Shown in pieces: positions 2,556 to 15,076 of a stretch of DNA of 64,000 nucleotides; position 1 is the stretch's first letter, and each line of letters begins with the position of its first letter. The notes under the pieces were generated by a model. It did no database searches and was not told the DNA's origin. It was given only the letters and a program-made list of their open reading frames with translations. The stretch comes from Dictyostelium discoideum (lineage: Eukaryota), in assembly GCA_000004695.1 (NCBI GenBank), contig CM000154.2, forward strand, positions 3,072,001 to 3,136,000, given 5' to 3'. Both the position numbers and the translations under genes were made by a program.

Positions 2556-5608
<3,053 letters not shown>

Positions 5609-5726
5609 ATTATTAAAAAAAAAAAAAAAAAAATTAACAAATAAAAAAATAAACTAACAAAAAAATTAAATAAAATTTATTTTAATAATTTTAAAACCAC
5701 CACCCCAAAAATGACAACATAATATT

Positions 5727-7189
5727 TTAATTTGAAATTTCTTTTGCTAAACCTTCGATGATTGATTTATATTCAATTTTTTCATAATTACATTCTGGTA
5801 CACCATTGAAACCATAGAGAGCACCCCACCAACAACAACCAATAGCACCAGTTGAATCATTATCACCACCATGAAGAACTGATCTTTTAATCATTTCTTC
5901 CCAATTATCAGCAGAACCTAATAAGGCATCATATGCTATAATACATGAATCATGACCTGATGAACCACCCCAACCACTAAATGAAATTGAATGATAGAAA
6001 TTCTCTCTAACTTTATAATCTGAATAATCTTTTGGGAAAACTGGATAATCGATACCCTTATCATTGGCTGCTTTTAATTCGTCTGGATTCGATGGAATTT
6101 GTCTTAATTTTAAATAAGATTTCCAAGAGTTCCAAAAATAATTCCAACCTTTTTCATAATTTTCAATGTTACGATTTGAACTATTTGAAGTTTTCTCTAA
6201 ATATTCTCTAGCTTTTGGCATTACCTCTGTCATTAATTTCAAAGGCCAGGTTTTTGGTGGAATTGATCTGATTGCATATGAGGCAAATAATGCTGATACT
6301 AATGCACCTAGAAAGCCAACTGGGTTATTATGTGTGATTCTACCACTTTCAATTGATAATTCAATTAATGTATCCAATTGTTCATCAGACCAATATTTAA
6401 ATCCAATACACATAGATCTCATTGATCCACCACAACCACCTGCTCTATCAGAGAAATCAATCTCATTCCATTGATAAACTTTGGATCTCATTCCAGTTTG
6501 TGTCATCAGTGATACTGAATTAATTGTTTGAATTCCTGGTGCTCTTCCTGCCATATCTTCCATTGAATGAATATATGCTTTTGCTAATTCTTTACATATT
6601 GATTCATTATCTGTATTGGTTGGTCTTGTTATTGCAATTGCTGTTGCAATATGCATAACTATTTTTTTTTTTTTTTTTTTTTTTTAATTAATTTTAACAA
6701 TTTTTAAAATAATATTTATTTATTTAAATTACATACTTGTATCATCTGATAATCTCCAATCTTTCTTATTTATTCTTTAATTTTTTTTCAAAAAAAAAAA
6801 AAAAATTATTATTATTATTCAAATAAAAATAAGAAATAAAATAAAATTAAAAAAAAAAAAAAGTACCTACTTTAGATTTTTATAACCACCAAGATATTCA
6901 TAGTGTTCATATATTCTTGATGGAGACTTTTCAAACTCCCAAATACCATTTTTATATCCACACTTTAAAAATAAAAAAAAATAAAAAAAAAATATTAGAA
7001 TTGATTATTTGTTTGAAAAATAAGAAAAATTGAAAAATTGAAAAATTGAAAAATTGAAAAATCAATACATACAGCATCACCAAATGCTGATAAAAGCATT
7101 GCTGGTTTAATGTTTTCTTTATTAATTGTGCCCATGATTGTTTGTGTAATCTTTTTATTTGTAAGTGTGCTAATAAATTTGTGAAACAT
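5727..7189 (-). CDS. ADP-ribosylarginine hydrolase (ADPRH/ARH1 family, ADP-ribosylglycohydrolase fold); exons (minus) 7189..7073, 6962..6871, 6774..6737, 6658..5727 (392 aa)
   Basis: Exon 1 MFHKF...MGTINKENIKPAMLLSAFGDA aligns with [26 protein letters not shown]; exon 2 CGYKNGIWEFEKSPSRIYEHYEYLGGYKNLK; micro-exon 3 K-INKKDWRLSDDT aligns with RWRVSDDT; exon 4 IMHIATAIAI...GGCGGSMRSMCIGFKYW...SGWGGSSGHDSCIIAYDAL...HGGDNDSTGAIGCCWWGALYGFNGV. Catalytic motifs of ARH1 (GGDSDSTAAIAGCWWG, SGWGGSSGHD) are conserved. Introns: GTATGT..AAAG (7072..6963), GTAGGT..AAAG (6870..6775), GTATGT..ATAG (6736..6659). Phases are consistent: 117 + 92 + 38 + 932 = 1179 nt. Confidence 0.8.
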
Positions 7190-7391
7190 TGTTTTTTTTT
7201 TTTTTTTTTTTCAGAAAAAAAATCAAAAAAAAAAAAAAAAAAAAATTTCAAGCTTAATTTGAAATTTTGTGATATTTTGAGAAGTATCTATTTTAAGAAA
7301 TTCGTAATCAATTAGTCACAGTAATGACTCATTAATAATTTTTTTATTTTAATATTTTAACATTTTTTTAAAATAAAGCATAAAATTAATT

Positions 7392-7490
7392 AAAATTAAA
7401 AAAAATAAGAAATTAATTAAAATTAAAAAAATAAGAAATTAATAAAAATTAAAAAAATAAGAAATTAATTAAAATTAAAATAATAAAAAA
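7392..7490. repeat. About 27-bp tandem repeat x4 (TTAATTAAAATTAAAAAAATAAGAAA)
   Basis: Four head-to-tail copies with 1-3 substitutions each, 200-300 bp upstream of the minus-strand ADPRH start (7189). Confidence 0.75.
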
Positions 7491-7982
7491 TGAATCAATC
7501 AAATCAATATATTTGGTTTTTTATTTTATAAAATTTATTATTCCCTACTCATTATTGTTCAAAATAAAGAAACAATTACAAAAAATGAATAATAAACGAA
7601 TAATAAAATTTTAAAAATATTTGATTAATTGAAAAAAAAAAAAAAAGAACTGAATGACTACATTCATTTTTTTCTCTTTTATTTGCAAATGATGGATAGT
7701 TTCTTTTATTATTTGACTAATAAAAAATATTATTCAAAATTATGTGGTAATAAAAAATATTATTCACATTTACTAATTAAAAACTTTATTTTCAATTATA
7801 ATTTTAAGAAAATAAAATGACAAAGATTTATTTTATAACCTTTTTTTGCATCTAAAAAAGAAATTTTCCAAAGTTTGGACAAGAGATATTATAAAAATTT
7901 ATTTATCATTGTTTAATTACAACAATATTTTTTACCAACTACAATTTTACCGTAATTGCAATCCTTTTTATAATCTAAATTA

Positions 7983-8247
7983 TTAATTTCCAAAAAAAGT
8001 TCTATATGGAATTAGACATCCAGAAGACATACCCATGCATGTATAATCTTTACTTCCTATGATGAATTGAGTGCAACCATTTTCTTCAGCATTTGAACCT
8101 ACAGAGAAAAGAAATAAAGCAAATAAAATAGCAAATCCTATTAAACTTAATAACTTTAAATTTGGAATTAGTAAAAAAAAAAAAATCCAAAATTATTTAT
8201 TTAAACATATTACATGTTTAAATTCCAAAGGTTTTTACTAAATTCAT
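7983..8247 (-). CDS. Candidate small secreted cysteine-containing peptide (59 aa); exons (minus) 8247..8239 (MNL), 8153..7983
   Basis: Not in the ORF track (<60 aa, split). Minus strand: AAAATG AAT TTA then GTAAAA donor; 85-nt AT-rich intron ending TTTAAAG (8154..8238). Exon 2 reads LLSLIGFAILFALFLFSVGSNA-EENGCTQFIIGSKDYTCMGMSSGCLIPYRTFFGN*. It has a hydrophobic signal peptide with an AxA-like cleavage context and 4 Cys in the mature part. The ATG has an A-rich context. Confidence 0.35.
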
Positions 8248-8751
8248 TTTTTTTGAAACTTGTGTTTCTTTTTATTTGAATTTAGAATATAGAATTTCAA
8301 TTTTTATTTCTAAAATCTTTTTTTTAAACCACTTAAATATAAAAAAAATTGTATTTATTTAATTATTTAATTACAATTACAATTATAAGTAATATACAAA
8401 TATTAAAATTAATATGAGATTAAAAAATTTTTGTTGGTCATGTCCTATTTTTATTGGCTCAAGATATTGTTTTAACAGAACAATATTGCAGTTAAAAAAT
8501 TATTAATATTTCTAATAGTACTAAATAATAATTAATATTTTTAATTGTATTAAAAAATTATTAATATTTTTTAAAATAATTTACTTTTATTTGTCCAAAA
8601 ATCAAATGAAATTTCAAAATAAAAAATAAAAAAAAATATATATATATTTTAATTTGTTTATTTTATTTAAATTTAACAAAAAATTTTATTACTATTATTA
8701 TTATTATTATTATTATTATTCTTATTATTATAATTATTATTATTATTATTA

Positions 8752-8790
<39 letters not shown>

Positions 8791-9561
8791 TCACATGATT
8801 TTATTTTATTGATTTTTTTTACAAGATTGTTAATGTAATTAAAGATATAAAAAAAAAAAAACACCACCAACAGGAAAATTGTATATTTTTTTAATTATAG
8901 AAAACAAAAACTTTAAAAAAAAAAATTTTTTTACACGGGAAAAAAAAAAACCTTTTATTTACCCTAATAATTCCTATTGGATACAATTTTTTAGCCAAAT
9001 AGTTCCTATTGTATGTTTTTTTTTAAGTTATATTAAGTGTTGTAGGGAAATTTTTTAAAATTTCGCTGCCTTAACAGTAGTGAGTTTTCATACTAAATTT
9101 TTTTTTTTTTTTTTTTTCAATATTAAAAACAATTATTTTAGCCAAAACAATAAAAAAACTAATTTTAAACAGTTATTTGTAAGTTGTTATTTCTTTTAAA
9201 AATAAATAACAACTTACTTTCGAGTTTGTGACAATTTTTATTTTTTTTTTTATTTTTTTTTATTTAACCATAAACATAAAAAAAATGAAAAAGAGTTGTG
9301 TAACAATAAATATAAACTAATAATTTCATCTTCGTCTTCAAATAATAATAATAAATAATAATAATAATAATAATAAAAATAATAATATTAATAATAATAA
9401 TAATAATAATAATAACAATAGAGAAAAATTATCAACCATTTTCATCTTATAATAATAATAATAATAATTATAAAAATAATACAGGTGGTGCTGTTAGTAC
9501 TAACATTGTAAATAATATGGGTAAATGTGTTATTACTGGCCATCACTTTAGTGTATAAAAT

Positions 9562-10374
9562 ATGAATCATAATAATAATAACTATGATTTTGATAATAAA
9601 AATAATAGTATTGGTGGTGGTGGTGGTAGTAGTAGTAGAAGTAGTAGTAGTAGAAGTAGTAATAGAAGTAGTAGTGGAAGTAGTGGTGGCAGTGGTAGTA
9701 ACAGTAGCAGTAGTATAAATAATATTATTAATAGTGATAAAGACTTTATAACAGAAAGAAAACAAACAAAATCTCCACCTTTAACTCTTCCAAATATTAA
9801 AACCACCACCACAACAACTACCACAACAACAACTACCACAACCACAACAACAAAAAATGAAAATATAAGTTCATCTGAATCTGAAAACTCCTCTAGCAGA
9901 GTTGAATCCCCAAATTGTAATAAAAAGGTTAAGAAAACCAAAACCATTACTATCAGTCCAACTGGTTATAATATCAATAGTAAAGATGACATTAATAAAT
10001 TTACTACCTATGGCTACACTAACGAAAAGAGCAATGCCAGAAGAGACCCAAAATGGATAACTGATATTATTGAAAGATATAATCGTTTAAAATCTGAAAG
10101 CCCTAATAATAATTATAATGGCAGTAGTAATAATAATAATAATATTAATAATATTAATAACAATAGTAATAATACTACGTCACCTTGTCAATCACCATCA
10201 TCAAATACAGCAACTATAACATCAATATCATCACCTACTTCATCATCCTCATCTTTATCATCCCCATCCCCATCATTTAGTATAAATAACATTGTTAATC
10301 AAGATGTTGATGGTTGTGATAGAATGAATTATACTTTACTTTCGCAAAATAATAATAATAATAATAATAATAAT

Positions 10375-10427
<53 letters not shown>

Positions 10428-10929
10428 GAATACAAATAATAATGGTGATGAATGTATTGTTAAACCAATTTCATTAATTCAAAATAAAAAAAGCGGTCAA
10501 AGAAGTCTTAAAACCAAAGAACATAAAGAGATACTTGAAGCATTATATAGAGTAACCTTGTATCCAACATCAGAGGAAACTAAAATCATTAGCCAAATTT
10601 TGGGTATGACATTTGGTCAAGTTAAAAGCTCCTTCCGTCATCGTAGAGAGAAATTATCAAAGTCTGGTTTGTTCTCTTACGCAAAAAATCTTAAAAATTG
10701 TGGAAAATGCACAGTACCTTTGGATAATTTCTTTGAAAATTGTAAATACTTAACTACTAAAGAAACTGAAGAGTTTGCTGCTGCATATGATGTATCTTTT
10801 GAACAAATCAAAAATTATTTTAAAGGAAAAAGAGCAATATTAAATAAGTTATCTTCAAAGGCGAATCAAGATAATGATAATAATAATAATAATGAAAATA
10901 ATGATGATAGCTATAGTGATGAAGGGTGA
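9562..10929 (+). CDS. Homeobox-containing protein (atypical homeodomain, possibly two HD-like segments), Ser/Thr/Asn-rich
   Basis: Single ORF of 455 aa. Segment KKSGQRSLKTKEHKEILEALYRVTLYPTSEETKIISQILGMTFGQVKSSFRHRREKL has homeodomain spacing: basic N-arm, helix1 EILEALY, Y-P, helix3 ...Q(V/I)K..F.(N/H)RR.K, with W replaced by S and N by H. A second HD-like stretch is YAKNLKNCGK...TKETEEFAAAYDVSFEQIKNYFKGKRAILNK. Poly-Thr (ACC/ACA)n and poly-Asn tracts are in frame. Confidence 0.65.
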
Positions 10930-11157
10930 TAAATTTGAATAATGAAAGAAGTAGTGTTCTTTTTTTATTATTAGATTTTATAAGAGACTTAAAATTTTTT
11001 ATCACCCCTCTCCTCCTCCTTCCTCCCCTATGAATTTATGATTATCACTACAAATCTAAATCCATATCCAATTAAAAAATTTTTGATTAAAAATATATAT
11101 GTATGTAGAGTAATTAATTATTTGTCCTATTTGTTATCTGTTTTTCAAATTTTTTGG

Positions 11158-11231
<74 letters not shown>

Positions 11232-11810
11232 AAGTTTATATTAATTAAGAATTTAATTAAATTATTTTATAAAACAAAGCCACAAGCGGTAATTTATAAA
11301 ATTAATTTTGGTTTAATCATAATTCAATTATGTTTTTTATTATTAAATTTTTTATCCACACACATTTTTTTTTTTTTTAAAATTTCCCAAATAACAAGGC
11401 TTTATCGTCATACAAAAAATAAAAAAATGAAAAAAAAGGTATGTATTTATTTTTCAAGGCTTGGAATGAAAATATCTTGAGCTTTACATAGAAATTTTTA
11501 ATGTATTTGTGATAAACGAAAATTTATTATAGGCGAAATTCAAAAAAAAAAATAAAAAAAAAACTAAAAACTTCAACTTTCTTAATTTCTAAGAAATATT
11601 TTTTTTTTTAAGAATATCAATATATTTTTCATTGGCGCCAAAATAACCCTTTTTTCTTTTTTTTTTGATTTTTAAAATTTTGTTATTTTTTTTTTTTTTA
11701 TTTTTTTATTAAAAAGGTTTGGGTGGAATACAAATAAAAAAAAAAAAAAAAAAATCATTTCAATAAATTTTCAATCAAATAATAAGTTTTTGAAACAAAT
11801 AAATATAATA

Positions 11811-11961
<151 letters not shown>

Positions 11962-12737
11962 GTAATAATAATAATACTAATAATGGTAATGATGAAATTA
12001 AAAATAAATTAAATCAAAAGAGTAGAATGATTGAAGATTTGGAATTTTTATTAGATATTGGATTAATTAGTTTCAAAAAAATTTCCTACAACATATCATT
12101 TGGTGAATTTTTGATTGTTCTATTTATTATTAAACCATTTTTACAATTAAAAAAAAAAAAAAAAAACTAAAAAAATGAAAAATAAAAAAAAAAAATAAAA
12201 AAAAAAATGAAATATTTTTTTTTTTTTTTTTATTTTTTTTATTTTTTTAATCAAAAATATCCAACCCGAATACTTATTTAATCAAAAAAAATAAAATAAA
12301 ATAAAATAAAATATAATAATCAAATAAAAGATAAAAACCAAAAAAATTAATCAAAATTATTTTAAGAAGAGTTTTTATTTTATTTTAAAAAAAAAAAAAA
12401 AAAAAAAATCTTTTTTTTTTATTTTAAAAAACCTTTAATTTAATTTTTATTTTAATTTAATTTTAAAAAATATCTTCAAAGAATGAACCTAAAGTATTAT
12501 AATATTTGGTTCTATTATAATCTATCTGGGTTTTTTTTTTTTTTGGATTAAGGAAAAAAAAAAAAAAAAAAAAAATTTTTTTTTTTTCGCCGTTAAAGAT
12601 TTACATAAATTTTAAATTATTATTATTAATAAACAATCTCTCATCTGCATTAAAATCAGATTTGAAAAATAAAAAATAAAAAATTTAAAATTAATTTTTT
12701 TAAAAAAAAAAAAAAAAAAAAAGATATTTTTTTCTTT

Positions 12738-12779
<42 letters not shown>

Positions 12780-13102
12780 CTTTTTCGTAAATATACCCTT
12801 TGAATTTGTATTACTATTGTACATTAATTCTACCAACCCTTTTTGTATTTATATTTCTTTTTAAAAATTTCATTATTTTAAATAATAATAATAAAATCAA
12901 TCAAAAGATTAATCTATACATCAAATTCATTCACAACAATAACCTCCAAAAACTAAAAAAAAAAAAAAATAAAAAAAAAAAAAAAAAAACTAAAAATAAT
13001 TTATTTAATTTTTTTATTTTTAATTATTTTTTTATTTATTTAAACATATATATATATATATATATATAATATATAATAAATTTATATAACATATATATAA
13101 AA

Positions 13103-13142
<40 letters not shown>

Positions 13143-13544
13143 TTTTTTTTTTTTTTTTTTTTTCCTCAATCACAACAATACCATAACCACACCCAACTTT
13201 CAATCCCCCCCCACTTACCACAAAAAATACCTACTAGTAATATATTTTTAAATCTCAAAAGACATAAAACCACATCAGGGTGTGATTAATCACTTGAAAA
13301 TAATTTTATAATAATAATTTAAAAAAAAAAAAAAAAAAAAAAAGGTTTGTTTGTGTTTTTTTTTATATATTATTATTATTATTTTTTTATTTTTATTTTT
13401 AGTAGTGACAAGTATAAAAAATACAACATTATTTTGAGTGTTTATTTCGAGATGTGTTGTTTGTTGTTTTTTTTTTCATTTTAATTTAAATTTAAATTAT
13501 TAATAATATTAATATTATTATTTTTTTTTTTTTTTTTTTTTTTA

Positions 13545-13590
13545 CTTCCACACACAGATTTCCACACACCCCACCACCACACATTCAAAC
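13545..13590 (+). promoter_or_regulatory. C/A-rich element (CAE / G-box on the opposite strand) 30-70 bp upstream of the RasGEF ATG
   Basis: ttccacacacagatttccacacaccccaccaccacacattcaaacggacac: CACACACCCCACCACCACACA in otherwise >85% AT flank. Its reverse complement TGTGTGGTGGTGGGGTGTGTGG resembles the G/T-rich G-box bound by GBF in post-aggregative Dictyostelium promoters. Confidence 0.35.
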
Positions 13591-13618
13591 GGACACATTA
13601 TAATATTATTATTTAAAA

Positions 13619-13820
13619 ATGGACATAAATAATAATATTGACAATATTACAAATAGTAATAATAATATTGAAAAAAATAATAATATTAATAATTTTGATA
13701 ATAATAATAATAATAATAATATTTTATATATTAGTAGTAGTGAGAGCAATAATAATAATAATATTAATAGTAGTAATAGTAGTAGTAATAATACTAACAA
13801 TAGTAATAATAGTAGTATTA

Positions 13821-13868
<48 letters not shown>

Positions 13869-14718
13869 TTTCCATAGAAGGTAATACAGCTAATAATAGT
13901 GATATAAAAGTTGGAACAAGTTTAACGAATTCAATTAAAAGCTTTAAGAAACTATTTAATAATCAAAAGAGTAATAATAATAACAATAATCTTCAAGTTA
14001 ATCATTTTCAACAATCACAATCATTACCACCATCATCAAATACTTCGCCTACATTTTCATCAACATCACCAATTATAATCGTATCGGATAATACAAATAT
14101 TGAATCTTTAGATTTAGAAATAAATAGTAATAATAGTGGTAGTATTGGTAGTAATAATAGTGGTGATAATAATAATATAAATATGAATTATAAATCAAAA
14201 TCCCTATCATTAAATTATTCAATTTTAAGACCTTTATGTGATACTGATAATATTAGTAATAACAATAATAATAATAATAATAATAGTAATAATAGTAATA
14301 ACAACAACAACATGTCATCCTCTGATAATAATAATAATAGTAATAGTAATAATACTACAAATGGTGGTCAACTAAAAAGAAATAATAGTAGTAATAATAA
14401 TAATAGATATAGTATTGGTGGGCCATTAAAAATGTCAAATTCATCAGATTTTAATGATTATTTATTAAATAATAATATTTTATATAATATTAATCAACCT
14501 AATCGTAAAACACCACCACCAAATTTAATGTCAGTTTTAAAGAATAGTTTCACACAATATACACCACCTTCAACAACACTCACATCACCAACAAGTACAC
14601 GTAATCCAAATAGATTATCAACAAATTTATCAAATGTAACAAATATATCCTCTTCAACATCATCATCTTCTTCATCTTTAAATGCTAATAATAATACTAA
14701 TAATAATAATCAACAATT

Positions 14719-14753
<35 letters not shown>

Positions 14754-15076
14754 TACAGCAACAACAACAATTAACAAAATCATACTCTGTTAGTAATTTA
14801 ATGAGATCACAATCATCATCATCATCTTCACAATCACCATTAATTCAACAAAGTGATCAAGTTACATTTGATTATGATTATATTTATAGAAGGTTCCTTA
14901 GAAGTAGAAGTGAATTGACATTACCATCATGGGACAATGCACAATATGAAGGTGATTTCGATACTGAAATCCAAGATACTCTAACTAGAGCTTTATCAAA
15001 TGGTAATTTACCAAGTGATAATAAAAGACAAAGTTTACATTTATCAACTGAATCAACTACAAGTAATAATAATAAC

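Follow-up and report, generated by a model that had tools for sequence, protein, structure and literature searches.

A probable young, frameshift-disabled paralog of a small secreted LysM family at DDB_G0289783 in Dictyostelium discoideum

The two-exon gene on the minus strand at 7983..8247 of the window (the whole 64,000-nucleotide stretch of Dictyostelium discoideum DNA analysed here; contig CM000154.2, positions 3,072,001 to 3,136,000) is probably a young, recently duplicated member of a family of small secreted LysM proteins that was disabled by a single extra T, the lengthening of a homopolymer from T6 to T7. The first-pass annotation had described this locus as a gene for a small secreted cysteine-rich peptide, and such family membership is borne out by our comparisons; the accompanying suggestion of a signal or an antimicrobial is not the best reading, because the relatives are single-domain LysM proteins and a one-nucleotide frameshift appears to break the copy in the window midway through that domain. 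The features on which the argument draws are as follows, in window coordinates:

8239..8247, minus strand: exon 1, three codons ATG AAT TTA (M-N-L)
8154..8238, minus strand: intron of 85 nt, 16.5% GC, GTAAAA...TTTAAAG, with GT..AG ends
7983..8153, minus strand: exon 2 of DDB_G0289783, 29% GC; stop TAA at 7985..7983
7992..7998, minus strand: T7 homopolymer (A7 on the plus strand), where the frame is shifted by 1 nt compared with all family members
7913..7990, minus strand: continuation in the +1 frame, EINNLDYKKDCNYGKIVVGKKYCCN, with stop TAA at 7915..7913, found by tblastn with the closest paralog (P0002)
7898..7903, minus strand: AATAAA motif, read from the sequence, 10 nt past the second stop (that of the family)
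7465..12097, no strand assigned: segment of ~4.6 kb with the LysM copy and a homeodomain gene, lacking a counterpart at the syntenic site
9562..10929, plus strand: homeodomain gene, 455 aa (Pfam Homeodomain, 48 bits)
5727..7135, minus strand: ADP-ribosylhydrolase (ARH1-like) gene, four exons, 374 aa as reconstructed, donors gtatgt, gtaggt and gtatgt

The gene structure proposed earlier (an MNL exon, a GTAAAA donor, an 85-nt intron, a TTTAAAG acceptor and a 59-aa product) is present in the sequence exactly as claimed, and the same layout of micro-exon and intron recurs in most of ten related copies; this family-wide structure supports the splice model more strongly than does any argument from the single locus. 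The product was also correctly said to escape a simple ORF scan: the first start codon of the exon-2 frame lies only in its last few codons, and without a usable start codon of its own the frame is absent from a plain ORF list at ≥30 aa. A match to a paralog at E=1.1e-11 and the recurring exon/intron structure in related copies together argue that the spliced exons are not a chance ORF. The window is strongly AT-rich (GC 11-33%), and the proteins it encodes match AX4 entries of D. discoideum exactly or almost exactly. The intron is similar to those of the copies at 11079 and 12735 of a D. discoideum gene cluster described below (GTAAAAACCT...ACTAATTCYAAATTTAAAG).

The signal peptide predicted for the product is likewise upheld: mean hydropathy over residues 1-20 is 2.3-2.5; the remainder of the segment, encoded by 8153..8088 of exon 2, ends in SNA and is followed by EENGCTQFIIGSKDYTCMGMSSGCLIPYRTFFGN and the stop; SNA|EE is a plausible signal-peptidase site; and the N-terminal segment is conserved across the family in an alignment of eight sequences. 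Codon 3 (8239..8241) is TTA (Leu) in the window copy and AAA, AAG or AGA (Lys/Arg) in all other family copies, so that the usual basic residue is missing from its signal peptide, the sole such case in the family. The AATAAA motif at 7898..7903 is a possible polyadenylation signal; inspection of the sequence from the annotated stop to that of the family revealed no AATAAA. A three-exon model, in which a second intron of 58 nt runs from GTATGT at 8032 to AG at 7975 and yields an in-frame product of 63 aa with the KYCCN end, was rejected: it removes a conserved block, CLIPYRTF.INNL, that aligns with all paralogs, and its product is in no database.

The gene is not unannotated, as had been stated: the 59-aa sequence is identical to the hypothetical protein DDB_G0289783 (XP_636048.1, Q54H70; record of 5,125,352 bp) of strain AX4 in NCBI and UniProt, where it carries the name 'uncharacterized protein'. 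Searches of the literature by gene ID for DDB_G0289783 and DDB_G0293854, its closest relative, found nothing. As the gene model is already known and its biology appears to be ordinary, that of a truncated paralog within a known domain family, the importance of the locus is limited; its practical consequence would be a corrected DDB_G0289783/Q54H70 entry that places the protein in the small secreted LysM family as a member with a frameshift.

Among 5.8 billion proteins, the 59-aa product has a sole relative, P0002 (DDB_G0293854, XP_628910.1, Q54B78; strain AX4), an 84-aa protein named 'LysM domain-containing protein' in UniRef, which it matches at E=1.1e-11 with 59% identity over 95% of the query. 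P0002 and the frame-corrected window copy share an MN-x start, a signal peptide ending in SNAE, six Cys and a KYCCN end; unlike the window copy, which has the T7 frameshift and begins with MNL, P0002 is intact in a single frame and begins with MNK. The two copies lie on different chromosome-sized records (3.6 Mb for P0002 vs. 5.1 Mb for the window copy). A phmmer search with the mature domain of P0002 against 1.84 billion representatives returned only P0002 and P0003, the latter found by the representative-library search and coming from another D. discoideum assembly. Profile searches added P0004 and P0009 from AX4 (79 aa, 'peptidoglycan-binding lysin domain') and four tandem genes of D. firmibasis, P0005-P0008 (80 aa). 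The members of the family thus assembled have about 80 residues, a single LysM domain, six Cys, an MNK start, a hydrophobic N-terminus ending in SNAE and a KYCCN end. Invariant in the eight-sequence alignment are the six Cys, F56, N60, L62, G76, Y79 and N82, an invariance that holds only with the frame-corrected form of the window product. The four Cys claimed earlier correspond neither to the annotated frame, which holds three, nor to the family, which has six.

The LysM assignment of the window copy rests on its homology to relatives of the P0004/P0009 type. Three sequences pass the Pfam LysM model (PF01476, gathering score 20.9 bits): P0004 at 21.8 bits, P0009 at 22.1 bits and domain 1 of P0003 at 21.9 bits. 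For the 59-aa product, the corrected 82-aa product and P0002, no Pfam match was obtained even at E≤10, and searches of Pfam, NCBIfam and PDB sequences with the window product alone gave no match. P0004, P0009 and the D. firmibasis tandem cluster RB653_008946-9 have the architecture and gene structure of the window copy's family, are 41-44% identical to the corrected product, and keep the canonical CSSWHVA...GYTC motif with which they pass Pfam LysM, whereas the subfamily of the window copy and P0002 has diverged at this motif and does not pass. By these comparisons, the window product belongs with P0002 to a diverged branch of the LysM family.

Structural comparison is consistent with this assignment. 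The alignment-based AlphaFold model of P0002 contains, in order, a strand, a helix, a helix, a short helix and a strand, with pLDDT of 70-88 over the domain (the single-sequence model was poor, at pLDDT 57), and on this model the closest paralog may have a LysM fold. Searched against the PDB, the family profile gave as best matches the 49-50-residue 'Chitinase A' chains 4pxv and 5bum (E=0.013-0.016), with Cys aligned. The LysM domains of plant chitinase-A (4pxv, 5bum) and of Mg1LysM (6q40) have a strand-helix-helix-strand fold of ~50 residues with Cys at positions equivalent to those of the family, and Mg1LysM, a fungal effector of 79 residues, also shares its overall design as a small secreted single-LysM protein. 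Compared with 4pxv and 5bum, however, the sequence similarity of the family is marginal (E=0.013, by profile), and the window copy encodes half of the domain in frame. Glycans that contain GlcNAc, bacterial peptidoglycan among them, are by analogy with LysM domains the most likely ligands of intact members, which may deserve attention as candidates for peptidoglycan binding in an amoeba that feeds on bacteria; the window copy itself adds little. The sole published mention of a Dictyostelium LysM gene that we found concerns DDB0218607, which is reported to be 32-fold over-expressed in strain V12M2 (PMC2443395); a link between that gene and the small secreted family could not be made.

The evidence for the frameshift comes from the continuation of homology past the annotated stop, a point absent from the first-pass annotation. 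By family alignment, exon 2 covers no more of a LysM domain than its N-terminal half, with three of the six family Cys, and P0002 runs 25 residues beyond the point where the 59-aa product ends; in the window the homologous frame likewise runs 25 codons beyond the annotated stop, in +1. Tblastn with P0002 aligns window 7996..7916 with P0002 residues 58-84 at 70% identity (E=1e-11). The tail at 7913..7990 supplies what the annotated frame lacks: the C-terminal half of the LysM domain, the other three Cys and the C-terminal G-[KR]-K-Y-C-C-N motif of the family, here ending KYCCN*. The domain is therefore split between frame 0 (up to 7992) and frame +1 (7990..7916) rather than encoded in one continuous frame. 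Deletion of one T gives an 82-aa product that is 62% identical to P0002 from end to end (pairwise E=5e-37), with no gap at the junction (RTFLEINNLD in the window vs. KTFMRINNLD in P0002), and that keeps every invariant column of the eight-sequence family alignment.

We infer that the frameshift is recent, since the out-of-frame tail is still open and, of the positions invariant in the family, has kept all nine that follow the break. Such a perfectly preserved tail fits a very recent mutation; it would also fit an error common to the two assemblies compared below, or recoding. Counts of the pN/pS type against two paralogs are tiny, too small to show relaxed constraint. The copy is probably an ordinary member of the small secreted LysM family in decay. 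If it is transcribed and spliced, it would yield a signal peptide and a 34-residue fragment that reaches from LysM strand 1 through helix 1 into the beginning of helix 2. The break leaves three Cys on either side; should all six Cys of the family take part in disulfides, at least one bond would have to cross it, and the fragment therefore could not form the family fold. With its odd number of Cys the fragment would carry one unpaired Cys, and it is most likely non-functional or degraded.

That the 59-aa product is itself functional, as a secreted 34-residue peptide with three Cys and a role of its own as a signal or antimicrobial, is in our view unlikely. The ORF, the splice sites and the signal-peptide-like N-terminus are all intact, as such a peptide would require, and the model has been retained in the AX4 annotation; in a newer D. 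discoideum assembly (L003, GCA_054883475.1), however, the annotation calls no gene at the LysM locus. The peptide would end within a LysM domain with an odd number of Cys, and the copy encoding it is alone in lacking a basic residue at position 3. Truncation at this point is seen in no other family member, nor did the 5.8 billion proteins include any homolog of the short form. Moreover, the +1 tail still resembles the family, which makes the truncation too recent for selection on the shorter product to be visible.

We regard it as quite improbable that the gene is intact in the organism, with an 82-aa LysM protein as its true product and T7 as an error common to both assemblies. In favor of this view, the frame after the shift is open to the family stop with all invariant residues kept, and homopolymers are classic sites of sequencing error. 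A run of seven is nevertheless short for an error of Sanger or of modern long-read sequencing, and the newer assembly, obtained through an exact match of the neighboring homeobox protein (on a chromosome of 5,288,541 bp), is 100% identical to the window over 7700..8600, T7 included. Over 21 kb it differs from the window by 22 mismatches and 18 indels, and is thus not a copy of the reference, although its independence is inferred from these differences and is not documented. Two assemblies that disagree at 40 other positions therefore agree on T7, within 901 nt of perfect identity, which makes a sequencing error in the reference unlikely. A search of plasmid DNA gave no match, nor did a metagenome scan for the flanks of the T run with 6-9 bases allowed in the run.

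Recoding, by transcriptional slippage on U7/A7 or by ribosomal −2/+1 slippage on U UUU UUU that would partly restore the frame, seems to us very improbable: the frame change does fall exactly on the run of seven U, where tRNA-Phe could re-pair after a −2 slip to give ...TFFLEINN..., and the +1 tail is perfectly preserved; but no other copy of the family needs a frameshift, this AT-rich genome has many T7 runs, the nearest predicted hairpin is weak and starts 33 nt downstream of the run (−12.7 kcal/mol, z=−2.2), and a recent indel suffices without any special mechanism. Of the elements of a programmed frameshift (a slippery run, a stimulatory element and a conserved shift), the U7 run alone is present. 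Were recoding true, a single gene of recent insertion would be the source of two products, a secreted fragment of 34 residues and the full-length LysM protein, and a social amoeba would provide a case of homopolymer-dependent recoding.

The reading of the locus as a young, disabled paralog agrees with its genomic setting. The ARH gene at 5727..7135, which dictyostelids conserve well, was the synteny anchor for four loci: a divergent D. discoideum strain with 96% protein identity (L004), D. citrinum (L005), D. firmibasis (L006) and D. purpureum (L007). The LysM copy and the homeobox gene are absent from the ARH locus in all four. Window 5000..7464 and 12098..15000 align to the divergent strain with only ~325 nt between them, the alignments to D. 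citrinum and D. firmibasis break at similar positions, and in these three the flanks align with no counterpart of the segment between ARH and the next large gene; in D. purpureum both the LysM and the homeobox genes are missing next to ARH. The nearly abutting flanks in the divergent strain and the similar breaks in the two other species indicate that the ~4.6 kb at 7465..12097, with its two unrelated genes, came to this site by insertion or translocation in the AX4 lineage. No transposon-like ends or terminal repeats were found in the segment, where a repeat search gave low-complexity matches only. The nearest DNA relatives seen are copies of the D. discoideum cluster (75.7% and 71.8% identity); a donor of the window LysM gene was not found among the loci compared. 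In D. firmibasis the LysM cluster and the ARH gene share a chromosome, ~240 kb apart.

Window 2556..5608, on the plus strand, holds a gene for a 992-aa protein, interrupted by a single intron of 74 nt. Besides very long tracts of poly-Asn and tracts rich in Asp/Lys, the protein has a C-terminal region free of repeats.

The gene structure of the family was examined in ten related copies, six from D. firmibasis (L001) and four from D. discoideum (L002). In both, a three-codon exon ATGAAYAAR (with AGA as third codon in one copy) is followed by GTAA and an intron of 65-87 nt, and most of the ten copies use an AG|TTATTAA acceptor (two acceptors read differently). The window copy has the same organization: a three-codon exon, a short AT-rich intron and an exon 2 that opens with the hydrophobic core of the signal peptide. 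In D. firmibasis (CM069767.1; 10001..14938 of L001), six LysM genes of ~77-80 aa with this three-codon exon stand in tandem. The counterpart cluster of D. discoideum (GCA_054859355.1) has four copies, at least one of them dead and one interrupted (14697..15072 of L002); in the dead copy the donor GT has become GG, a stop lies in the signal peptide and Cys1 has become Phe. The six tandem copies of D. firmibasis, the dead copy of another D. discoideum strain and the AX4-lineage copy that moved with a homeobox gene together show a family that, judged from these sequences, evolves by rapid birth and death.

A separate observation concerns the gene model of P0003 itself (KAM9974652.1, 140 aa; 10001..11327 of L002), which looks like a fusion of an intact gene of the P0004 type with exon 2 of the dead copy.
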